From a candidate division WOR-3 bacterium (lineage in GTDB: Bacteria; Hydrothermota; Hydrothermia; Hydrothermales; JAJRUZ01): 64,000 nucleotides of DNA. Below are positions 636-24,713 of the stretch, one piece after another. Positions within the stretch are counted from its first letter, which is position 1; every line of letters starts with the position of its first letter. The stretch is taken from assembly GCA_024277525.1 (NCBI GenBank), contig JAJRUZ010000058.1, forward strand, positions 2,767 through 66,766, given 5' to 3'. Position numbers and translations under genes: made by a program. The notes beneath the pieces were generated by a model. It made no database searches. It was given only the letters and a program-made list of their open reading frames with translations, and had not been told where the DNA came from.

Positions 636-1742
636 ATGAAACTTGTAAATAGATTATTTCCCGAAAATAAAAAAATCCCTTCGGAAAGGGATTTAAAGAA
701 AATTGAAATTGATGAAGATATCCTTTTTGATCTCGAAAAAATAGCAATCGGCAGTTTTACTCCCCTTGAAGGATTTATGAAAAAAGAGGAACTGAAAAGT
801 ATTTGCGAAAAAGGAAGGTTGCCTTCAGGAAACCCCTTTACAATTCCAATTTTATTACAGATTAAAAAAGAAAATGTTAAAAATTTACCCGAAAAAGGTG
901 AAGTTCTCTTGTCTTACAGAGGTGAAATCTACGGTATGATTGAAATTGAAGAAGTTTATGAATTTGACCCTGGTTATGTTGCAAAAAAAGTGTTCGGGAC
1001 TGATTCTGAGGAACATCCCGGAGTCTCCTTGTTAAAATCAAAGGGGAATTATGCAATAGGAGGGAAAATATTCCTTTTTAAAAGACCGAAACATCCATTT
1101 TCTGACCATGAACTCACACCTTCTGAAACAAGGGAGATTTTTAAACAAAGAGGATTTAAGACAGTGTGTGCTTTTCAAACAAGGAATGCTCCTCACAGGG
1201 CACATGAATACCTTCAAAGAATTGCACTTGAGATTACAGATGGACTCTTTATTCATCCTATTCTCGGAAGAAAGAAAAAGGGTGACTTTTCCAATGATAC
1301 AATTTTAAAAAGTTATAAAGCACTTATTGAAAATTATCTTCCGAAGGAAAGGGTTGTGCTTTCCGGTCTTACAACTCCCATGAGATATGCAGGTCCTAAG
1401 GAGGCGGTATTTCATGCAATTGTAAGAAAAAACTACGGAGCAACCCATTTTATTGTCGGAAGAGACCATGCAGGAGTGGGAGATTTTTATGACCCCTATG
1501 CAGCACATAGAATTTTTGATGATTACCCTGATATAGGAATTGAAATTATAAAAGTAAAATCCGTTTTTATTTGTAAAAAATGTGATGGAATTGCTTCAGA
1601 AAGGACATGTCCTCATAAAGAAAGTTTCAGGGAAAGCATAAGTATGACAAGAATCAGAAATGCTTTAAAAAATGGAGAAGAATTGCCTGAGGGGATAATA
1701 AGAAAAGAAGTTTTTGAAGTCCTTAAAAAAGAATACAGATAA
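636..1742 (+). CDS. sat: Sulfate adenylyltransferase (ATP sulfurylase)
   Basis: 368 aa. Hallmark QTRN and HRAHE motifs (AFQTRNAPHRAHEYLQ) and a GRDHAG motif. The N-terminal PUA-like and catalytic domain layout is typical of Sat. Confidence 0.9.
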   Translation: MKLVNRLFPENKKIPSERDLKKIEIDEDILFDLEKIAIGSFTPLEGFMKKEELKSICEKGRLPSGNPFTIPILLQIKKENVKNLPEKGEVLLSYRGEIYGMIEIEEVYEFDPGYVAKKVFGTDSEEHPGVSLLKSKGNYAIGGKIFLFKRPKHPFSDHELTPSETREIFKQRGFKTVCAFQTRNAPHRAHEYLQRIALEITDGLFIHPILGRKKKGDFSNDTILKSYKALIENYLPKERVVLSGLTTPMRYAGPKEAVFHAIVRKNYGATHFIVGRDHAGVGDFYDPYAAHRIFDDYPDIGIEIIKVKSVFICKKCDGIASERTCPHKESFRESISMTRIRNALKNGEELPEGIIRKEVFEVLKKEYR

Positions 1743-3041
1743 ATGTTTTTTTTTAAAAAAAGAAAACCAAAAATTTTCATAATAGGACTTGATGGTGTTC
1801 CTTATTCTTTTTTAAAAGAAAACATAGAAAATAAAAACTTACCTTTTCTTTCAAATCTTTTTAAAAATGGCTCTTTTTTGCAAATGGAATCCGTTTATCC
1901 TACTTTATCTTCTGTTGCTTGGACGAGTTTTCTTACAGGAGCAAGACCCGGAACTCACGGAATTTACGGATTTATTGATGTAAAAAACGACTTATCCATT
2001 TTTATCCCGAATTATAATGATATAAAAATAAAAACTATTTTGGAAATCCTTGTTGAAAATAATAAAAAGATTCTTCATATAAATTTACCCATAACTTACC
2101 CTCCACCGAGATTAAATGGAACTTGCTGTATTTCCGGTTTTCTTTCTCCTTCCATAGAAAAAGGTGTCTACCCGGAAGAATTATCCGAATATTTAAAAAA
2201 AGAAAATTACATAATTGACCTTGACCCCTGGATGGCAAGGAATAAAGAAAAGAGAGGGGAATTTTATAAAAATCTTTTTAGAGCAACCGAAAAAAGATTC
2301 AGAGTCTGTGAATTTTTAATCAAAAAGAATGAATTTGATATTATAATCCTCCATATAATGGAACCTGACAGATTATTGCATTTTTTCATCAATGAAAAAG
2401 AAAAATTAAAGGAATATTTCAAATTCCTTGATAATAAACTTGAAAACTTCATAGAAAAAAATGTGTCAGATAAAGATGAATTAGTTTTACTTTCGGACCA
2501 CGGATTTACTCAATTAAAAAAAGAAATCAATGTACTTGCCATTTTTAAAAAAGAAAAAATAATAAAATTTGAGAAAGAAAAGCCGGATGGAATAAAGGAT
2601 ATAACTCCTGATTCAAAAGCATTCACTTTGACTCCCGGAAGGATTTATCTTTTTACAAATGAAAGATTTGAAAAGGCAAAGTTTAAATCAAAGGAAGTTG
2701 AAAAAGAGGTTAAAGGAATTTTAAATGAAGTTTTAAAAATTGAGGGTGTAAAGGATTGTAAAAAAAGGGAAGAGATTTTCGGAATCGAGCCCACCCCTTT
2801 TTCTCCTGATTTTCTTTTAATTCCTGAGAATGGATACGATTTAAAGGGTGATTTAAAAAGTGATGAAATTTTTTCAAGATCCGCTCTTGAAGGCACACAT
2901 ACTTATGATGATGCATTCTTATTTATCAGGGGAAGGAAGATAAAAAAGGAAAAACCTTCCATTTTGGACCTTGCTCCCACAATCTTGGAAATTTCAAAAA
3001 TAAAAAATAATTACAAATTTGACGGAGAGGTATTAATATGA
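1743..3041 (+). CDS. Alkaline-phosphatase superfamily protein (type I phosphodiesterase / nucleotide pyrophosphatase family)
   Basis: 432 aa. N-terminal GLDGVPYSF...YPTLSSVAWTSFLTGARPGTHGIYGF metal-site motifs of the PF01663-like AlkP-core family. The start codon directly abuts the sat stop codon. Confidence 0.7.
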   Translation: MFFFKKRKPKIFIIGLDGVPYSFLKENIENKNLPFLSNLFKNGSFLQMESVYPTLSSVAWTSFLTGARPGTHGIYGFIDVKNDLSIFIPNYNDIKIKTILEILVENNKKILHINLPITYPPPRLNGTCCISGFLSPSIEKGVYPEELSEYLKKENYIIDLDPWMARNKEKRGEFYKNLFRATEKRFRVCEFLIKKNEFDIIILHIMEPDRLLHFFINEKEKLKEYFKFLDNKLENFIEKNVSDKDELVLLSDHGFTQLKKEINVLAIFKKEKIIKFEKEKPDGIKDITPDSKAFTLTPGRIYLFTNERFEKAKFKSKEVEKEVKGILNEVLKIEGVKDCKKREEIFGIEPTPFSPDFLLIPENGYDLKGDLKSDEIFSRSALEGTHTYDDAFLFIRGRKIKKEKPSILDLAPTILEISKIKNNYKFDGEVLI

Positions 3042-3970
3042 AAGAAGAGGAATTTAAAAACTTAAAATTAATTTCAATAAAACAAAGAAGGAACAAATTA
3101 AAAGTTTCCGACTTTGTCTCAGAGAGGATACCGCAGGATTTTAAAGAATTTCTTTCCTTTTTGCCTCATGTTTTCAGAGCCGATGATTTAAGGGAATTCA
3201 TAAATGCCTTAAAGGATGCAAAGGAGAAGGGGAAACCGATTTTATGGATGATAGGGGATGCGGTAATTAAATGCGGACTTGCTCCTTTATTTGCAAAACT
3301 TGCTGATGCCGGTTATGTAAAATGGGTTGCAGGACAAGGAGCGGTTGCAATCCATGATTTTGAGATAGCAATGTTTGGTGAAACATCGGAATATGTTGAA
3401 GAAACAATTAAAGACGGAAAATTCGGGATGACAAAGGAAACCCTTGAATTTTTTGATAATGTATTAAAAAGAGGATTGAAAGAAAAAAAAGGAATGGGAG
3501 AGATAATTCCAGAGGTCTTAATAGAAAAAAATCCGCCTTATAAAGAAAAAAGTTTGATGTGCATTTTAAAAACCCGAAATATTCCCATGAGTTTTCATGT
3601 AGCAATAGGCACGGATATAACGCATTTATATCCGTTTGCGGACGGTGAATCCATCGGGTTTACGACTTATAAAGATTTTAAAAGGTTTGCTATGTATCTA
3701 TCGGAATTTGAAAAAGGAGGAGTGGTTATAAATGTTGCATCCGCTGTTATAATGCCGGAAGTCTTCTTAAAGAGTTTATCAATAGTCAGAAATCTCGGAT
3801 ACAAGGTTTATAACTTTTTTGCCTGTAATATTGATCAGATTCAGCATTATAGACCGATGCAAAATGTGGTTGCAAGACCGACAAAGGACGGTGGCAAAGG
3901 AATAGCAATAACAGCAAATATTGAAATATTTTTACCCCTGCTCGGTGTTATTTTATTAAATTATGATTAA
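3038..3970 (+). CDS. Deoxyhypusine-synthase-like (DHS-like Rossmann fold) protein, function unknown
   Basis: 310 aa. ATGA overlap with the upstream gene. The segments GDAVIKCGLAPLFAKLADAGYVKWVAGQGAVAIHDFE and HVAIGTDITH...GGVVINVASAV resemble the DHS family, but the catalytic Lys-His pair of true DHS (GGGVVKHH) is not conserved. Confidence 0.4.
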   Translation: MKEEEFKNLKLISIKQRRNKLKVSDFVSERIPQDFKEFLSFLPHVFRADDLREFINALKDAKEKGKPILWMIGDAVIKCGLAPLFAKLADAGYVKWVAGQGAVAIHDFEIAMFGETSEYVEETIKDGKFGMTKETLEFFDNVLKRGLKEKKGMGEIIPEVLIEKNPPYKEKSLMCILKTRNIPMSFHVAIGTDITHLYPFADGESIGFTTYKDFKRFAMYLSEFEKGGVVINVASAVIMPEVFLKSLSIVRNLGYKVYNFFACNIDQIQHYRPMQNVVARPTKDGGKGIAITANIEIFLPLLGVILLNYD

Positions 3971-4071
3971 ATTCTATAAAAACTTTGAAAAAGCAAGAAA
4001 AGATTTAATAAAAAGAGCGGTTAAAAATGCCGTTGAACGCTTTTGAGTATTTATATGAGCAAAAGTAAAAC

Positions 4072-4917
4072 ATGCATATTTTAATTTTCGGTCTTTCGGA
4101 TTTGCTCGGAAGAAGTTTGTATAAAAAATTAAAAGAAAAAAAATTTGATTTAAAAGGATTTTCAAGAAATAAAAAGGAATGGTTCGAGGATGAATTTCAT
4201 TTCTTTGAGGAATTTTTTGAGAAAGATTTTGAAGGAGATTTTTACATCTATCTATCAGCAATATCGGGTGATTTTCAGGTTGAAAAGGATTATATAGAGG
4301 CACTTGAAATAAATGTTATAAGTCCTTTAAAAATATTGGATAAAATTAAAAAGGGACATTTCATTTATATTTCTTCTGCAAGTGTTTATAAGAATAAATT
4401 ATTTCCCGAAGAAGAAGATGCAGAGTTCCATAATTCCCTTTACGGGTCTCAAAAATATTCAGCAGAAGGTTTATTAAATGTTTATTGTAACAAAAAAAAG
4501 ATAAGATTTACTGCTTTGAGATTTCCGAGAATTTACGGTCCTTATATGGAAAGGAATCCTGTTGCTGATTTTTTAAAAGCACTAAGGGAAAAAAGAAATG
4601 AAGTTATTTTGTATGATGATTATAATGCGAGATATGAATATATTTTTTCTTATGATGCAGCAGGATGTATTTTAGAAATAATTGAGAAAAAAATAGAAGG
4701 AATCTTTAACTGTGGAACCGGAGTAGTGAAAACAGTAAAAGAGGTGGAAGAGGCATTCAGAAAGTTAACAGGGAAGCAATTTGAAATTAAATTCATAAAA
4801 AAGAGGAAAGGTGTGGATATTTTGGATTCAAGTAAGTGGAAAAATCTGACAAAATTTAATTTTACTGATTTTGAAAAGGGATTAGAAATTACATTAAAAG
4901 AGGAGAAATTGATATGA
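4072..4917 (+). CDS. NAD-dependent epimerase/dehydratase family protein
   Basis: 281 aa. Degenerate N-terminal Rossmann motif (ILIFGLSDLLG) and a YxxxK catalytic motif (YGSQKYSAE). SDR-extended-like length. Confidence 0.6.
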   Translation: MHILIFGLSDLLGRSLYKKLKEKKFDLKGFSRNKKEWFEDEFHFFEEFFEKDFEGDFYIYLSAISGDFQVEKDYIEALEINVISPLKILDKIKKGHFIYISSASVYKNKLFPEEEDAEFHNSLYGSQKYSAEGLLNVYCNKKKIRFTALRFPRIYGPYMERNPVADFLKALREKRNEVILYDDYNARYEYIFSYDAAGCILEIIEKKIEGIFNCGTGVVKTVKEVEEAFRKLTGKQFEIKFIKKRKGVDILDSSKWKNLTKFNFTDFEKGLEITLKEEKLI

Positions 4918-5687
4918 AGGTAAAAAGAAATCAGAAAATCTTGCTTTTTAGTCCTGAGAAAAATTTTGAAATATTTGTGGATTATGAAGAAAACGGTGAA
5001 GTTCATACGCACGTAGGCAAGGTCGTATTAAAAAAGAATCTTAAATACGGAGACATTTTGAAGAGTTCAAAAAATAAAATTTTTTATGTTTTGAAACCTT
5101 CTTTAAGTGACCTGATGATAAAAATTAAAAGAAAAACGACTATAATTTATCCTAAGGACGCAGGGCTTATTATTCTTGAGCTCGGCATAAGGAGTGGTAG
5201 TAAAGTGTGTGAAGTGGGAACAGGTAGTGGTGCATTTTTGACTCTTCTATCAAGTATTGTAGGGAGTAAGGGTAAAGTCTATACATTTGAAAGAAGAAGG
5301 GATTTTCTGGAACTTGCGAAAGGAAATATTAAGGATTACGGATTAGGAAGTAATATTGAATTCAATTTAAGAGATGTTGAAAAAGAGGGTTTTCCGAAAA
5401 TAAAAGTTGATGCGGTTTTTGTGGATATTCCCGAACCTTGGAAAATTGTGCCTTTTGTTCCACGAATCTTAAAGCCCGGTCATGTACTCGGCTCTTTATC
5501 TCCGAATATTGAACAAATTCAGAAAACGAAAAAGGAGATGGAAAAAAATGGATTTATAAGAATAAGGATTTATGAAACAATATTAAGAGAAATAATGGTA
5601 AGGGATATAGGGACAAGACCGAAGGAATTCGGAATTGTTCATACAGGGTATTTGATTTTCGGTAATTTAGCGAATTATTTGCAATAA
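4914..5687 (+). CDS. trmI: tRNA (adenine-N1)-methyltransferase, TrmI/GCD14 family
   Basis: 257 aa. SAM-binding motif VCEVGTGSGAFLTLL and flanking residues typical of TrmI. ATGA overlap with the upstream gene. Confidence 0.75.
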   Translation: MKVKRNQKILLFSPEKNFEIFVDYEENGEVHTHVGKVVLKKNLKYGDILKSSKNKIFYVLKPSLSDLMIKIKRKTTIIYPKDAGLIILELGIRSGSKVCEVGTGSGAFLTLLSSIVGSKGKVYTFERRRDFLELAKGNIKDYGLGSNIEFNLRDVEKEGFPKIKVDAVFVDIPEPWKIVPFVPRILKPGHVLGSLSPNIEQIQKTKKEMEKNGFIRIRIYETILREIMVRDIGTRPKEFGIVHTGYLIFGNLANYLQ

Positions 5688-5787
5688 GGATACTACCTCT
5701 TCTATTTTTATAACAATAAAAGACATATCACCACCTTAATTCTGCAGAATCAAATGTATGTTTTTGACATCCCCTGGGTGTAAATAT

Positions 5788-7080
5788 CTAAATGATTATA
5801 TCAATTTCTTTTCCGCAATCAGGACATATTTTTTTGTCTTTTAATCTATTCTCTATAATTTCAAATCCGAATCTCTTTATTAATAAACTTTCACAATTCG
5901 GACAATAGGTGTCTTCGTATCTGTGCCCGGGAATATTACCGATATAAACATATAAAAGTCCTTCTTCTTTTGCTATGTTTCTCAAGATTTCAAGACGCTC
6001 AACGGACGTAGGAGGTGTGTTAAACTTATAAGCAGGATAATATCTTGTTAAATGATAAGGAGTCTCTTCTCCTACCTCATCCCTTACTCGTTTTGCAATC
6101 TCCCTTATATCTTTTTCTTTATCATTAAATCCTTCTATCACAAGTGTTATAATTTCAACCCATATTCCTTTTTTCTTTGCGATTTTAATATTTCTCCATA
6201 TTTTCTCCACATCCGCACCGCAGTATTTTTTTACAAATTCTTTATTTCCCTTTATATCAAAATTTATTGCATCAAGACCCGAATCTATTAAAATATTTAA
6301 GGTTTCCTCTGTCATATACCCATTAGAAACAAAAGTATTATAATAGTTTTTCTTTTTTGCTAATTTAAAGACATCCACGGAATATTCAAATAAAAGGGTC
6401 GGTTCATTAAAAGAGATGCTTGTTCCGTCGCATTTATATTTATCCATTATTTCAATAAACTCCTCGGGTGATATAAATTTTCCCCTCCCTATATTTTCTG
6501 CCCTTTTGCTTATATCGTAATTTTGACACCAGGGACATAAAAAGTTGCATGACCAAGAGCCGACCGTAAGTGCCATTGTTCCCGGATAAAAATGGAAAAA
6601 GGGTTTTTTTTCTATGGGATTAATACTTATGGAAGAAATTTCACCGTAAATTAAAGTATAAATTTTTCCATCAATATTTATTCTTGTTTTACAAAAACCC
6701 ATCCGTCCTTCTTTTATTTTGCATTTCCTCTCACAAACAAGACAAATTGAAAAATCTTTTTCCTTTTTATACAAAATACTTTCCTTCACTCTTCTCTCAT
6801 TTACAATCTTTATCGGATTTATATTTATTGTTTCAAAAACCGGATAAATTGACACACGGTCGCCCTCTTTTAATTCTTTATCAAGAAAAGAATTCTGTCC
6901 GTTAACAAGAACGAGATGAACTTCTTTTTCGGGAATTTTAAAAAATTTAAGAATATCCTTAACTTTTGAATTTTCTTTTATTTCAATCTCAAATTCTTTC
7001 TTTTTTAAATCAAAGGGTAAATAATCATTTAACTCTTCATAAAATCTTACTTTTATTTTCATCGTTAAAATTATAAACAA
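5788..7080 (-). CDS. Radical SAM enzyme (PFL-activase / AmmeMemoRadiSam-like) with N-terminal ThiS/MoaD-like beta-grasp domain and C-terminal zinc ribbon
   Basis: 430 aa. Residues 1-85 (MKIKVRFYEELNDYLPF...GDRVSIYPVFETI) fit the MoaD/ThiS fold pattern. A CNFLCPWCQNY CxxxCxxC radical SAM cluster motif follows. The C-terminus carries CPNC...CPDC. Confidence 0.7.
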   Translation of the reverse strand: MFIILTMKIKVRFYEELNDYLPFDLKKKEFEIEIKENSKVKDILKFFKIPEKEVHLVLVNGQNSFLDKELKEGDRVSIYPVFETININPIKIVNERRVKESILYKKEKDFSICLVCERKCKIKEGRMGFCKTRINIDGKIYTLIYGEISSISINPIEKKPFFHFYPGTMALTVGSWSCNFLCPWCQNYDISKRAENIGRGKFISPEEFIEIMDKYKCDGTSISFNEPTLLFEYSVDVFKLAKKKNYYNTFVSNGYMTEETLNILIDSGLDAINFDIKGNKEFVKKYCGADVEKIWRNIKIAKKKGIWVEIITLVIEGFNDKEKDIREIAKRVRDEVGEETPYHLTRYYPAYKFNTPPTSVERLEILRNIAKEEGLLYVYIGNIPGHRYEDTYCPNCESLLIKRFGFEIIENRLKDKKICPDCGKEIDIII

Positions 7081-7157
7081 TTTGTGATAAAGTATGCTTA
7101 TTTTTTAAAATATTCTTTTAAAAGGTTCAATTCCGTTTTAAAAATTTAAAAATAAAA

Positions 7158-8336
7158 ATGAACGAAGTATTCATTATATCAGGTGTAAGAACACCGATCG
7201 GGAGGGTTTTGGGGTCCCTTTCCTCATTTTCTGCCACAGAACTCGGTGGAATTGTAATTAAAGAAGCAGTTAAAAGAGCCAATATACCTGCTGAAAAAAT
7301 TGATGAGGTTATTATGGGATGTGTTTTACCTGCGGGACTCGGTCAAGGACCTGCGAGAATTGCTGCTTTAAAAGCAGAACTCCCTCCTACAATACCTGCT
7401 CTTACGATAAATAAAGTATGTGGTTCGGGTTTAAAAGCAGTTATGCTCGGCACTCAGGCAATAAGGCTCGGTGATGCCGACATTATTGTTGCAGGAGGAA
7501 TGGAATCAATGACAAATGCTCCTCATCTTGTCAGAATGAGAGCGGGAATTAAATACGGTGATGCAAAAGCAGTTGATCACATGGTTTATGATGGTTTATG
7601 GTGCTCTTTTAATGATCAACATATGGGGAATCTTGCTGAATATACTGCAAAAAAGGCAGGAATTACAAGAGAGGAACAGGATAAATTTGCATATGAGAGT
7701 CATATGAAGGCTGTTAAAGCAACAAAAGAAGGTAAATTTAAGGAAGAGATTATCCCACTTGAAATAAAAACAAAAAAAGGTGTTCAAATTATTGATAAAG
7801 ATGAATCACCGAGAGAGGATACATCCCTTGAAAAACTTGCAAGTTTAAAACCTGTTTTTGAAAAGGACGGAACAGTAACAGCAGGTAATGCTCCTGGTTT
7901 AAATGACGGTGCAGCAGCACTTATTATTGCCTCAGAAAAGGCTGTCAAGGAGTATGGATTAAAGCCTATTGCAAGAATTGTTGCATATACTTCTAACTTT
8001 GTTGAACCAAAAGACCTTTTCTTTGCACCAATAGGGGCGGTTGAAAAAATTGTCAAAAAGATGGGGCTTTCCTCTCCCAATGATTTTGATTTAATGGAAA
8101 TAAACGAAGCATTTGCGTCTCAGATTCTTGCGGATGGTAAAGCCTTAAATATTGACTGGAACAAGGTAAATGTTCACGGAGGAGCAATTGCCCTGGGACA
8201 CCCGATAGGTGCTTCGGGTGCAAGAATACTCGTTACCCTCCTTTACGCATTAAAACAATACGGAAAAACAAAAGGACTTGCTTCTTTGTGTCTCGGAGGC
8301 GGAGGAGCAGTTGCTTTGGCGATTGAAATGGTATAA
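7158..8336 (+). CDS. Acetyl-CoA C-acetyltransferase (thiolase II)
   Basis: 392 aa. Thiolase signatures: NKVCGSGLKAV (active Cys), GNAPGLNDGAAAL and CLGGGGAVALAIE. Confidence 0.9.
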   Translation: MNEVFIISGVRTPIGRVLGSLSSFSATELGGIVIKEAVKRANIPAEKIDEVIMGCVLPAGLGQGPARIAALKAELPPTIPALTINKVCGSGLKAVMLGTQAIRLGDADIIVAGGMESMTNAPHLVRMRAGIKYGDAKAVDHMVYDGLWCSFNDQHMGNLAEYTAKKAGITREEQDKFAYESHMKAVKATKEGKFKEEIIPLEIKTKKGVQIIDKDESPREDTSLEKLASLKPVFEKDGTVTAGNAPGLNDGAAALIIASEKAVKEYGLKPIARIVAYTSNFVEPKDLFFAPIGAVEKIVKKMGLSSPNDFDLMEINEAFASQILADGKALNIDWNKVNVHGGAIALGHPIGASGARILVTLLYALKQYGKTKGLASLCLGGGGAVALAIEMV

Positions 8337-8338
8337 AA

Positions 8339-9601
8339 ATGTTCAAATTTTTACTCTTAATATTTTTAGCACAGGATACTCTTTATAAGGATAAAGTTGT
8401 TGCGATTGTTGACAAAAACCCTATACTCCTGAGCGATGTTGAAGAAGCTTTTGAATTTTTTAAACTTTTAAAACCAATTTTAAAAGAAGAAGAAAAAGAA
8501 GCAAAGAAGAAAATTCTTGAACAGCTGATTGAAAATGAACTCATCCTTTATGAAGCAAAGAAAGATACAACAATTAAGGTAACCGAGGACGAAGTTGAAG
8601 AGTTCATTGAATCAGAAACAAAAAGAATGAAAATGCAGATGGGAGATTCTGCTTTTAAGGCAGAACTCCGGAGGGAAGGTTTAACAGAGGAGGATTTAAA
8701 GGAAAAATACAGGGACCAGGTTGAGAGAAACCTTTATATTCAAAAGTATATTGCAAGATATATCTCTCCAAAAATCCAGATAACACCTCAGGAACTTGAA
8801 GATTTTTATAAAAAATATATTGATTCATTACCGGAGGTGCCCGAGGGTTTTGAACTTGCTCATATATTTATACCTATAAGACCATCCGAAAAAATTGTGG
8901 AAAGGGCAAAAGAAAAGGCATATAATGTTTACAGAGAACTTAAAACAGGAGCAGATTTCGGCTATATTGCTCTTAAATACTCCGATGACAGGATATCCGC
9001 GGAAAAGGGCGGGGATATAGGGTTTATTGAAAAAGGAACATTTCCGCCTCAAATTGAGGAGAAGATATTCTCCTTAAAAAAAGGAGAAATAACAGAGCCG
9101 ATTCAGGGAGATTTCGGATTTTTCATCTTTCAACTTGTTGAAAAAAAAGAAAATAAAGTCCATCTGAGACAAATAGTTATAGCAACTTTGCCGGATAAAA
9201 ATGACACTTTAAGAACAAAGCAAAAAGTTCAGAAAGCACTTCTGTACGCAGAAGAAAAAGGATTTGAGGAAGCGGTTAAAAAATATTCAGAAGATCCTCT
9301 AACAAAACAGCGAGACGGGTATCTTGGCTTTGTTCCGATAGATAATTTAAAACCGGAGGTTAAAAATGCCCTTTTAAATGCAAAGGACGGTGATATTGTA
9401 GGACCGTTTTATCTTGATTTCGGGTACCATATATTTAAAAGAATATCTTACAAAAAAGGAGGTAAGCTTCCATTTGACGAACTTAAAATGCAGATACAAA
9501 ATATTTTGCTTCAAAGAAAAATTCAGGAGAAATTAAAAGAAAAGGCGGAGGAAATTAAAAAAAGAGTTTATGTTGAAATTTTTGATAAAGAATTGAAATA
9601 G
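8339..9601 (+). CDS. SurA-like periplasmic chaperone / parvulin-type peptidyl-prolyl isomerase
   Basis: 420 aa. SurA-N-like N-terminus (VVAIVDKNPILLSDVEE) and two parvulin-like segments (GDFGFFIFQL, FGYHIFKR). Confidence 0.7.
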   Translation: MFKFLLLIFLAQDTLYKDKVVAIVDKNPILLSDVEEAFEFFKLLKPILKEEEKEAKKKILEQLIENELILYEAKKDTTIKVTEDEVEEFIESETKRMKMQMGDSAFKAELRREGLTEEDLKEKYRDQVERNLYIQKYIARYISPKIQITPQELEDFYKKYIDSLPEVPEGFELAHIFIPIRPSEKIVERAKEKAYNVYRELKTGADFGYIALKYSDDRISAEKGGDIGFIEKGTFPPQIEEKIFSLKKGEITEPIQGDFGFFIFQLVEKKENKVHLRQIVIATLPDKNDTLRTKQKVQKALLYAEEKGFEEAVKKYSEDPLTKQRDGYLGFVPIDNLKPEVKNALLNAKDGDIVGPFYLDFGYHIFKRISYKKGGKLPFDELKMQIQNILLQRKIQEKLKEKAEEIKKRVYVEIFDKELK

Positions 9602-9604
9602 ATT

Positions 9605-9871
9605 GTGCGGATTGATAAGTTCATTCAGCTGATAAATGTTATAAAAAGTAGGAAATATGCAAAGATTGCCTGTGAAAAGGGTTATGTTTTTGTAAACAGT
9701 AAAAAGGTAAAACCTTCATTCAGAATAAAAAAAGGAGATAAAATTTTAATTGACCTTTTGGATAGAAGAATAGAGCTTGAAATTCTTGAAGTGCCTGACA
9801 AAAGTTTTCCAAAGAGCGATATTGAAAAGTATGTAAAATTCATAAGTTATACGAAGAAGAAACCGATATGA
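9605..9871 (+). CDS. RNA-binding S4 domain protein
   Basis: 88 aa. GTG start. MRIDKFIQLINVIKSRKYAKIACEKGYVFVNSKKVKPSFRIKKGDKI matches the S4 fold consensus. Confidence 0.55.
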   Translation: MRIDKFIQLINVIKSRKYAKIACEKGYVFVNSKKVKPSFRIKKGDKILIDLLDRRIELEILEVPDKSFPKSDIEKYVKFISYTKKKPI

Positions 9872-9887
9872 GTTATTTCCAAAAATT

Positions 9888-11327
9888 TTATTTAATCAAA
9901 ATAAACTTTTCTACTTTGGAAGAAGAGTTAATCCTTAGATTTACAATATACAAACCTGAGTGAAGTTTTTTTATGTTGAATTCCTTTTTATATTTTCCGG
10001 GGTACAACTTTTCTGAAATAAGGGTTAATTTTTCTCTTCCGGATATATCATAAATTTTCAATAAAACAGAGGAATATATTGATAGAGAAAAAGATACGGA
10101 AATTTTCCTATGTGATAAAAAGGGTGTAATTTGGAATTGATTATGTTTTAATTTTTCATTAAATTCTTTTACGAAAAGTCCTGTAATTTCAGCGCCGTAA
10201 ACATCACCATCATAAAAATAGAGAGAACTATCCGGGTTAAAACCGATATTTGCTCTGTTTGTGAAAACATAAAATTTATTATTTGAGAATATTGTGGGGT
10301 TACTTAAAGGAATTTTGGTTCCGGATGTATCAAATATTTTAAATTCTTCACTTAAAGGATTAGCAGAAAGGTCAAACAATCGTCCTAAAACTTTTAAAGA
10401 ATCAAGTGATGTCCAGGTTACAAAAAGATTGTCGTTAAAAGTTGAAGCACAGGGAGTTATGTGTCCGGAAGATGCTATTAAAGGTCTTAATGATTGAACC
10501 GTTCCGTCAGGATTTACGAATCTTGCATATATTTTCCATCCGTCCGTTTCTTCATCCGTAAATAAAACTATAAATTTTGTACTATCAAACAATGCAAAAA
10601 TAGGGTTATCACTCAATTGGGAAGATCCGTCTATCAGAAAATTTGAGCCCGTTAATGTCCCGTTCTCATTTATAAGCTGCCCCCATATCTCATAATTGTT
10701 TGTATTGTTTACCCAGCATACCAGGTATTCTGAATTTCCGTATGCGAGAGTATAAGCACTGCGCGGGTTCTGAGAAGTTATCTGCAATCCGGCTGTAACA
10801 CTTCCATTTGTATCAATAAACGAACCGAATATCCCGTTTAATGTATCATATGAAACCAAGAAATATAAATTTGTCACAGGATTAAAATGAAGGGTGGAAA
10901 ACCCGCTTAAAAGTGTAAAGGTATCAATGTTGAACTCATTGGTCATTTGGAAAGTTTGAGCATTTATAAATCTGCCTTTTATTACATAACTTCCTGAGAG
11001 TGTATCGGTCCATGCAACAAGAAATTGCTTTCCGTCAAAAGAGACCTGCGGTAAGGCGAGATCAATTTTCTCTTTCATGGATACCGGAGTTGTTCCAAAT
11101 ATATAAGGTGTATCTATAAGAGAATTATCGGTTTTTGATAAAAATTGACCTCTTATCTCTGCTCCGTCTGCCGGAAGCTCTTTTTTCATAACGATCAAAA
11201 ATTTCTCATTACTCTGAGAAAGAGATGTTGCGAATACCGATTCTCCGGATGTTTCTACAGGAAATTCGCTTATTGCCTGAGCCATCAGCCCTGCTGCTAT
11301 CATTGCTACTACTGCTAATTTTTTCAT
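9888..11327 (-). CDS. Secreted repeat (propeller-like) protein with T9SS C-terminal sorting domain
   Basis: 479 aa. Signal peptide MKKLAVVAMIAAGLMAQA. About 7 degenerate repeats of the form F-x-V-x-W-x-D...G...F-x-I-D. The C-terminal roughly 80 aa (KIYDISGREKLTL...GLYIVNLRINSS...KFILIK) fit the por-secretion-tail consensus. Strong RBS AGGAGG lies upstream. Confidence 0.6.
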   Translation of the reverse strand: MKKLAVVAMIAAGLMAQAISEFPVETSGESVFATSLSQSNEKFLIVMKKELPADGAEIRGQFLSKTDNSLIDTPYIFGTTPVSMKEKIDLALPQVSFDGKQFLVAWTDTLSGSYVIKGRFINAQTFQMTNEFNIDTFTLLSGFSTLHFNPVTNLYFLVSYDTLNGIFGSFIDTNGSVTAGLQITSQNPRSAYTLAYGNSEYLVCWVNNTNNYEIWGQLINENGTLTGSNFLIDGSSQLSDNPIFALFDSTKFIVLFTDEETDGWKIYARFVNPDGTVQSLRPLIASSGHITPCASTFNDNLFVTWTSLDSLKVLGRLFDLSANPLSEEFKIFDTSGTKIPLSNPTIFSNNKFYVFTNRANIGFNPDSSLYFYDGDVYGAEITGLFVKEFNEKLKHNQFQITPFLSHRKISVSFSLSIYSSVLLKIYDISGREKLTLISEKLYPGKYKKEFNIKKLHSGLYIVNLRINSSSKVEKFILIK

Positions 11328-11337
11328 TTTTTACCTC

Positions 11338-11366
11338 CTGACAATCGGGAATTTAACCCTTATACT
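11338..11366 (+). promoter_or_regulatory. Near-consensus sigma70-like promoter (CTGACA-17 bp-TATACT) facing into the 290-nt intergenic region
   Basis: Read from the sequence: the -35 element is CTGACA at 11338-11343, the spacer is 17 nt, and the -10 element is TATACT at 11361-11366. No annotated + strand gene lies downstream. Confidence 0.25.
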
Positions 11367-11619
11367 TTTATGTCTTTCTTTAAGATAACATGAAAAAGTG
11401 TCTTTTGCAAATATCCAATCTGCGAATTTATATTTTAGACCTCTTTGGAACAAAAAGCTTATCTTTCTCTTTTGTCTTGGTTAAAATAGTTAGGTATGGA
11501 TAAGAAAAAATTTCTTATAAACAGGATTTAGTTTTATCCAAATTTCCTGATGTTCTCCATGAAATTTTAGTTAAAATGGGGAAGGAGAATTTTTGGACAA
11601 CCTGTGCCTTACTATTGCC

Positions 11620-12132
11620 TTACACCTCTGTCATCTCACTCCATTTTTTTGCTAATTCATCCCTTCTCGGTTTGTAAACAATTTCATAAAAGGAACGCTG
11701 GGATAAAAGAATCCCTTTATCATAATTTTTGCATATTTCAACCGCCTCTTTAAATGCCTGCTCAAATTTCCCCTTAAACCTCCTCTCTATCTGTTTCTCA
11801 AAACTCTCGGGGGTCTGGACTTCATTCCCTATTACATAAAACTTTTTACCCTCTATCTCCACACAATAAGCCATCTCGTCCCCTATTCTGTCAATTTCAA
11901 ATCTCCCTTTTATCTCTTTTCTTTTCTCCGGTATTTTTATCCTTCTTTCCTCAAAAGGTTTTATCTTCGGTTTAAATCCCCTTTTTGCAGCAGCATAAAA
12001 TATTGCCCTGTTTAACCCGAAACTTTTTGCCTCTTCAATTGACTTACCCAGAACGTAGGCTCTTGCAGCCTGCAAGGTCGCCATCACCTGAAATCTTCCG
12101 ATTTTTGCCATTACTTTAAAATTATAATTCAA
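11620..12132 (-). CDS. Hypothetical protein
   Basis: 170-aa ORF, lysine-rich, with no recognisable motif. Confidence 0.35.
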   Translation of the reverse strand: MNYNFKVMAKIGRFQVMATLQAARAYVLGKSIEEAKSFGLNRAIFYAAAKRGFKPKIKPFEERRIKIPEKRKEIKGRFEIDRIGDEMAYCVEIEGKKFYVIGNEVQTPESFEKQIERRFKGKFEQAFKEAVEICKNYDKGILLSQRSFYEIVYKPRRDELAKKWSEMTEV

Positions 12133-12150
12133 ATGTTTTAAAATATTAAA

Positions 12151-12456
12151 ATGAGTAAAATAATTGCTGCGGTGAGCATTACCCCGCTCGGAACGAGTAA
12201 AACAAGTGTTTCAGAATACGTTGCTGCTGCTATTAAGGTACTCGAAAAATATCCCGAGATACAACACCAGACAGACCCGATGTTTACCATTCTTTACGGT
12301 GATAAGGAAGAAGTAATGAAAGTGATAATGGAAATGCAGGAAGCGGTGTTTGAAAAAGGTGCGAAAAGGGTATCTGTTCTGATAAAAATTGACGAAAGAC
12401 GGGATAAAGAAGTCAAACCCGAAAATAAGGTTGAATCTCTTAAAAAATACCTGTAA
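12151..12456 (+). CDS. MTH1187/YkoF family (thiamine-binding-like) protein
   Basis: 101 aa. The start (MSKIIAAVSITPLGTSKTSVSEYVAAAIKVL) and the overall size fit the MTH1187/DUF77 family. Confidence 0.55.
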   Translation: MSKIIAAVSITPLGTSKTSVSEYVAAAIKVLEKYPEIQHQTDPMFTILYGDKEEVMKVIMEMQEAVFEKGAKRVSVLIKIDERRDKEVKPENKVESLKKYL

Positions 12457-24640: not shown

Positions 24641-24713
24641 AGCGGGCGACGGGATTCGAACCCGCGACCACCAGCTTGGGAAGCTGATGCTCTTCCGACT
24701 GAGCTACGCCCGC
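24641..24713 (-). tRNA. tRNA-Gly (anticodon CCC)
   Basis: The reverse complement GCGGGCGTAGCTCAGTCGGAAGAGCATCAGCTTCCCAAGCTGGTGGTCGCGGGTTCGAATCCCGTCGCCCGCT folds as a cloverleaf. Acceptor stem is GCGGGCG/CGCCCGC, D stem GCTC/GAGC, anticodon loop TTCCCAA, T stem GCGGG/CCCGT, discriminator U. CCA is not encoded. Confidence 0.85.

Follow-up and report, generated by a model that had tools for sequence, protein, structure and literature searches.

A Ub-Mut7C-type beta-grasp domain fused to an AmmeMemoRadiSam-type radical SAM enzyme in a narrow candidate division WOR-3 lineage

Why should a radical SAM enzyme carry a small beta-grasp domain at its N-terminus? This question is raised by one gene in a 64-kb stretch of DNA (the window, as we call the whole stretch analysed here), whose features are collected in Table 1. 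The uninterrupted open reading frame spans 5788..7080 on the minus strand; because the N-termini of the homologues read MKIKV or MKVKV, translation probably starts at the ATG at 7062 rather than at the TTG at 7080. The encoded protein is 100% identical to a database protein (P0001). A merged gene call or a misassembly as the source of the fusion is ruled out, since the frame is continuous and the fusion is kept in six assemblies. The first-pass annotation of this gene proposed the order of a ThiS/MoaD-like domain, a PFL-activase-like core of the AmmeMemoRadiSam type and a Cys ribbon, and the Pfam and NCBIfam models confirm the order of beta-grasp, core and ribbon. One flank holds a convergent gene for a GCD14/TrmI-type methyltransferase, and the other holds, in order, the genes for a thiolase, a SurA-like isomerase and an S4-domain protein. 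The divergent layout of the fusion and thiolase genes recurs in L001-L003, and the gene contexts of the fusion were read at P0004 and P0005. Promoter-like matches in the intergenic region between the divergent genes are not above shuffle expectation, and an Rfam scan of window positions 3000-10000 finds no family.

Table 1. Coordinates of the fusion gene, its domains and motifs, and the adjoining intergenic region in the window.
Feature	Position	Strand	Remarks
Beta-grasp + radical SAM fusion CDS	5788..7062	minus	424 aa + stop; stop codon 5788-5790
Beta-grasp domain, Ub-Mut7C family, MoaD/SAMP/ThiS-like fold	6823..7062	minus	aa 1-80
Conserved beta-grasp tail 'ININPIKIV' (aa 81-89) and short basic connector to aa 104	6751..6822	minus	
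N-terminal Cys knuckle (C107, C110, C114, C124)	6658..6750	minus	aa 105-135; inside the TIGR04337 match
Radical SAM core	6103..6549	minus	aa 172-320; Pfam PF04055, E=4.8e-27
CX3CX2C cluster motif, C172/C176/C179	6526-6549	minus	cysteines invariant
C-terminal 4-Cys ribbon, CPNC...CPDC	5815..5904	minus	aa 387-416; part of the TIGR04337 family model
Intergenic region	7063..7157		95 bp, AT-rich; between the divergent fusion and thiolase genes; read from the sequence

We consider the enzyme portion of the protein before its N-terminal domain. The NCBIfam model TIGR04337 ("AmmeMemoRadiSam system radical SAM enzyme") is matched nearly end to end over residues 105-420, with 263.2 bits against a cutoff of 220, and the Pfam radical SAM model (PF04055) is passed as well. 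The glycyl-radical activase models fail (TIGR02493 with 47.2 bits for a cutoff of 231.75, TIGR02495 with 64.9 bits for a cutoff of 131.15). No variation is seen across 120 aligned family members at C107, C110, C124, C172, C176, C179, C387, C390, C413 or C416; C114 is conserved in at least 90% of the members. The C-terminal zinc ribbon had been listed in the first-pass annotation beside the core. It is present, but since ribbon and N-terminal knuckle are invariant across the 120 members and lie inside the TIGR04337 model, both are features of the family and nothing particular to this gene; the ribbon is lacking only in some enzymes of the distant clade described below. The unfused TIGR04337 enzymes, of which hundreds from bacteria and archaea, 335-370 aa long, are 57-65% identical to residues 105-424, have all the invariant cysteines and motifs in common with this protein and differ in being without its extra N-terminal beta-grasp.

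AlphaFold2, given 120 aligned homologues, models the full-length protein with a mean pLDDT of 91.6 and a pTM of 0.80, and the pLDDT falls to 65-71 only at residues 71-90, near the junction of the two parts. Among known structures the core, a partial barrel, comes closest to the PFL activating enzyme (3cb8, E=2.8e-14, TM 0.77-0.79 on target), with lipoyl synthase (LipA), NifB and viperin next in line. PflA and the other glycyl-radical activases share the cluster motif; PflA, however, is without the two extra 4-Cys elements, and the sequence scores stay far under the family cutoffs. A viperin-type defence identity was considered and rejected, as the defence-system library gave weak similarity only, of a kind typical of any radical SAM enzyme.

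We turn to the N-terminal domain. Pfam Ub-Mut7C (PF14451) matches residues 2-79 with E=3e-18 and 65.9 bits for a cutoff of 23, while ThiS (PF02597), at 25.6 bits for a cutoff of 22.5, is passed by a narrow margin and is thus outscored. The Ub-Mut7C invariant residues R6, Y8, E9, E10, L11, L15, P74 and F76 are kept; all residues that are invariant over 76 aligned Ub-Mut7C domains (stand-alone, Mut7-C-fused and radical SAM-fused) are present here, and the motifs RFYEELNDxLP, LVLVNG and YPxFE are invariant or nearly so over the same 76 domains. The TatD-fused relatives largely keep these motifs, as judged by eye. A Mut7-C domain is absent from the fusion protein, PF01927 giving no match. The conserved tail reads ETININPIKIV in this gene for a consensus of ETIDISPIKII in its relatives, and this tail motif is common to stand-alone relatives of 91-114 aa and to the TatD fusions. 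With a pI of 5.9 the beta-grasp is mildly acidic, and it contains zero Cys and just 2 Gly, whereas the tail and connector stretch is basic (pI 9.7); the tether to the enzyme is about ten residues long. In a model of the N-domain alone, built on 76 Ub-Mut7C sequences, residues 1-75 have a pLDDT above 90. Its structural matches have the MoaD/SAMP/TtuB-like fold, and its best PDB sequence matches are SAMP2 (PF1061) and MoaD (E=1e-5). The ThiS/MoaD-like fold proposed for this domain is therefore borne out by structure prediction; the identity as a carrier that came with it is not, as the family is Ub-Mut7C and a free Gly-Gly is missing. The fold by itself cannot tell a carrier from a TGS-like binder.

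Could the beta-grasp still be a sulfur carrier or ubiquitin-like modifier of the ThiS/MoaD type, fused to its partner enzyme for sulfur insertion or protein tagging? Its fold would suit such a role, as would the weak pass of the ThiS model, the top PDB matches to SAMP2 and MoaD, and the additional Cys clusters of the enzyme. These clusters, however, are found in all unfused family members too, and the Ub-Mut7C match is far stronger than that of ThiS. Carriers such as ThiS, MoaD, SAMP and TtuB are separate small proteins with a free Gly-Gly and an E1-like enzyme, unlike the fusion protein, where the N-terminal placement leaves the C-terminus of the beta-grasp not free. The segment 'SIYPVFETI' aligns with 'VIPVVSGG' of SAMP2; the Gly-Gly is missing, and the chain runs on into the conserved tail. 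None of the stand-alone or TatD-fused relatives ends in GG either. An E1-like (ThiF/MoeB) or JAMM gene is not listed within 10 kb at the syntenic loci L001-L003, and there is none among the eight neighbouring window ORFs scanned (636-9871). Given the internal position, the lack of a C-terminal Gly-Gly and the lack of an E1-like neighbour, a role of the beta-grasp as sulfur carrier or conjugatable modifier is unlikely, and the suggestion that the fusion points to sulfur transfer is abandoned on the same three grounds. As an account of the whole fusion protein, the carrier reading is very improbable.

With which other domains does this beta-grasp travel? The N-domain profile was searched exhaustively against 1.84 billion representatives, which gave 1296 matches, and the best 150 were examined for domains. 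Ub-Mut7C is present in 150 of these 150 and Mut7-C, an RNA-binding, RNase-like domain, in 94 of them. Radical SAM occurs in one of the 150, this gene's own cluster, and TatD likewise in one, the closest relative (E=3e-30). Proteins with a Ub-like domain, Mut7-C and a zinc ribbon, such as TM_0779 of Thermotoga and Rv0579 of Mycobacterium, have the same N-terminal beta-grasp with its motifs and, like the fusion protein, end in a Cys ribbon; their catalytic partner is Mut7-C, in place of which a radical SAM enzyme is found here. The TatD fusions (P0121, L075, L076) have the closest N-domains, and their 'ETIDISPIKI' tail likewise abuts the catalytic domain, which, unlike here, is a TatD-type metal-dependent nuclease.

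Some minor partners and relatives of the beta-grasp can be recorded as well. DUF4416 is found in one of the 150 best representatives (P0208); P0159 joins the beta-grasp to an unassigned C-terminal region of 270 aa; and Ldh_2, NIR_SIR, tRNA-synt_1 and Fn3-like are each matched a single time. The TatD-fused copies lie at L075 180-1208 and L076 96-1112, the latter being the same protein as P0121 and sharing its metagenome project (FWWL01) with two contigs of the fused radical SAM enzyme. A stand-alone beta-grasp (P0271) was considered as a split form of the fusion and rejected, for a radical SAM gene is not found nearby. Its gene stands directly 3' of a nucleotidyltransferase/HepT-like toxin-antitoxin pair (L010 7256-8282), and two genes downstream of it is an archaemetzincin-like Peptidase_M54 gene (L010 8862-9545).

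The fusion had been called unusual, and rightly so: it is confined to one small WOR-3/Hydrothermales group, besides making up the single radical SAM case among the 150 beta-grasp representatives. Among the best 120 of 3875 homologues, PF14451 and PF04055 occur together only in P0001-P0006 (73-100% identity), and the remainder are unfused, 335-394 aa long and 56-65% identical. Where the organism is named, the fused copies come from metagenome-assembled genomes (MAGs) of candidate division WOR-3 or Candidatus Hydrothermales, now named Caldifarciminales. When 241 million metagenome records were scanned across the junction, the fused loci found were L071, L072, L073 and a disrupted L074; the same scan gave two fusions to TatD, several beta-grasps standing alone and many joined to Mut7-C, and a scan of the contigs of species-representative genomes with P0001 finds unfused enzymes only. 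Three loci with tblastn matches that seemed to start within the beta-grasp (L031, L036, L053) were checked and hold no fusion; P0270 is a truncated copy of the fusion. The six intact fusions group as a single clade in a simple neighbour-joining tree, with P0007 nearby, within a group that also holds unfused enzymes. The fused proteins carry only the label AmmeMemoRadiSam enzyme in the databases, and a literature search found no paper that characterises the enzyme family or mentions a fusion of beta-grasp and radical SAM. Each of the two domain families is known; their pairing is a new architecture of narrow distribution.

Such a narrow distribution suits a chance fusion in one lineage, near-neutral or decaying, whose N-domain adds little beyond folding or stability, and the unfused enzymes at 57-65% identity evidently function without a beta-grasp. 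Two imperfect copies bear on the same point. In P0007/L116 (61% identity) a beta-grasp lies upstream and in frame but is interrupted by a TAA, which stands in place of the GAA of its relatives (L116 1-230, FWWL01079272.1), and its signature motifs are weaker; this stop reflects either a decaying N-domain or an error in sequencing. In L074 (1016-1499, on a 2.2-kb metagenome contig) a stop or frameshift seems to disrupt the copy just past the beta-grasp. As one lesion lies inside the beta-grasp and the other near its junction with the enzyme, the module may be dispensable. Against a near-neutral fusion stand the six intact copies, each from its own assembly, which keep the fusion in frame with every family-invariant residue and, in the N-domain, a column identity averaging 86%; moreover, the capture of the same module subtype by TatD suggests selection for what the module contributes. 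We therefore judge a near-neutral fusion quite improbable.

The next question is whether the isolation of the gene from AMMECR1 and Memo, both of which have human homologues, sets it apart from its family. The AmmeMemoRadiSam system is named for adjacency or fusion to AMMECR1 and Memo, whereas the clade of the fusion gene is not adjacent to them. We split 59 loci from species-representative genomes by bit score against the window protein. The close clade (396-495 bits for complete genes; 49-63% identity to the window protein among these loci, 49-65% for the clade overall) comes from Dehalococcoidia, WOR-3, Clostridia, Anaerolineae, Bathyarchaeia, Nitrososphaeria, Hadarchaeota, Helarchaeota and others, and the distant clade (at most 247 bits, 28-42% identity) from Bacilli, Patescibacteria, Izemoplasma, Pacearchaeota and Atopobiaceae. 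Both pass TIGR04337, the close unfused relatives with 260-298 bits and the AMMECR1-adjacent enzymes with 281-353 bits; the label thus covers at least two clades with differing gene contexts, which is relevant to annotation. Neither the 64-kb window nor any of about 55 close-clade loci yields an AMMECR1 or Memo ORF in searches by motif, phmmer and HMM, and the same searches detect AMMECR1/Memo beside six enzymes, all of the distant clade. An AMMECR1-motif match at L067 (9216) is the radical SAM gene itself and was dismissed. In three more unfused close relatives, looked up directly, AMMECR1/Memo neighbours are absent. That the gene lacks these partners in the window, as the first-pass annotation had remarked, is correct; taken as a peculiarity of this gene the remark does not hold, for standing apart from AMMECR1/Memo is the norm of the close clade. 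No neighbour gene is conserved across this clade, where synteny is lineage-specific only.

A Helarchaeota MAG (JAHPZH010000002.1, L036) has two TIGR04337-type genes in tandem (10139-11167 and 11231-12268), of which one belongs to the close clade and the other, scoring 352.8 bits with TIGR04337, resembles the AMMECR1-adjacent enzymes. This pair suggests that the clades are paralogous and differ in role. The AMMECR1-adjacent enzymes of Bacilli and Patescibacteria (L058 10001-10885; L060 1644-2540) are about 290 aa long, end in 'HLGNV/I' and are without the C-terminal 4-Cys ribbon that the clade of the window protein keeps invariant.

What, then, might the fusion protein do? Enzymes of the TIGR04337 family occur widely among anaerobic bacteria and archaea, and to our knowledge no reaction has been assigned to the family. 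Our preferred reading, for which we put the probability at about one half, is that a complete radical SAM enzyme here carries, tethered in cis, a beta-grasp module for binding or targeting, whose ligand is most likely nucleic acid or a ribonucleoprotein; the targeting role and the kind of ligand are the parts that we infer. In the proposed mechanism, the [4Fe-4S] site formed by CX3CX2C in residues 105-424 would cleave S-adenosylmethionine to give a 5'-deoxyadenosyl radical. This site would lie within a PFL-activase-like open partial barrel, flanked by the 4-Cys knuckle and the 4-Cys ribbon, and the open shape would suit a macromolecular substrate. Residues 1-88, the Ub-Mut7C beta-grasp, would bring the enzyme to its substrate or partner in cis.

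Nucleic acid or ribonucleoprotein is the favoured ligand because Mut7-C is the usual fusion partner of the module and because the closest relative of the module is joined to a TatD nuclease. The invariant residues shared across different partners suggest that the module carries a function or ligand of its own. The Ub-like domain fused to Mut7-C has been predicted to bind RNA (PMC1779556), MUT7-C has been shown to bind RNA (PMC11347159), and the set of AMMECR1, radical SAM enzyme and dioxygenase has been predicted to carry out an uncharacterised RNA base modification (PMC2034487). A nucleic-acid ligand fits this older prediction of RNA modification by the enzyme family. Several findings speak against RNA as the ligand, however: the acidic beta-grasp (pI 5.9) is unlike a simple electrostatic binder of nucleic acid; the nearest structural relatives of the core, the PFL activases, act on proteins; the gene neighbourhoods, which vary among relatives, give no RNA link; and the published RNA prediction covers the AMMECR1/Memo-linked enzymes, which this clade is never found adjoining.

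A rival reading is that of a protein-protein adaptor, in which the beta-grasp would dock a protein partner or substrate (for example an AMMECR1/Memo-like protein encoded elsewhere) instead of nucleic acid. In structure the core stands nearest to activases with protein substrates (3cb8/3c8f, E about 3e-14), beta-grasps of this fold often make protein contacts, as in MoaD-MoaE, TtuB-TtuA and SAMP-JAMM among its matches, and the domain is mildly acidic. On the other hand, nearly all the other catalytic partners of the Ub-Mut7C beta-grasp handle nucleic acid, and no conserved candidate for a partner gene stands beside the fused gene or recurs across the close clade. An adaptor seems to us somewhat unlikely. 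A further proposal goes beyond the fused copies and takes the whole unlinked clade, in which identity between bacteria and archaea is 57-65%, to be a stand-alone modifier of RNA (tRNA/rRNA) or ribonucleoprotein, apart from the AMMECR1/Memo-linked paralogues, with the beta-grasp as an RNA-targeting domain; this we count as unlikely.

This natural fusion, to a module whose other partners are RNA-binding or nuclease domains, is among the few hints that context gives to the class of substrate. If the proposal for the whole unlinked clade is true, the fusion would open a large family to experiment for the first time, as a "Rosetta stone" for its function. If the beta-grasp is only a lineage-specific accessory, the finding is a minor variant of domain architecture.

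A few observations on the surroundings of these genes complete the picture. Near the start of the window is an ATP-sulfurylase gene (PUA_2 + ATP-sulfurylase, 636-1742). Rfam and tRNA scans of the surroundings gave nothing relevant; the sole tRNA gene in the 64 kb, for tRNA-Gly(CCC), lies at 24641-24713. In the close clade, an archaemetzincin-like Peptidase_M54 gene adjoins the unfused enzyme at six Dehalococcoidia loci (L015, L016, L018, L020, L021, L056), and the proximity of this peptidase to the enzyme and to the stand-alone beta-grasp P0271 may be a coincidence. At L015, L016, L018, L024 and L036 the close-clade enzyme has beside it another radical SAM-like ORF, Cys-rich and distantly related, for example at L018 11066-12340 on the minus strand.
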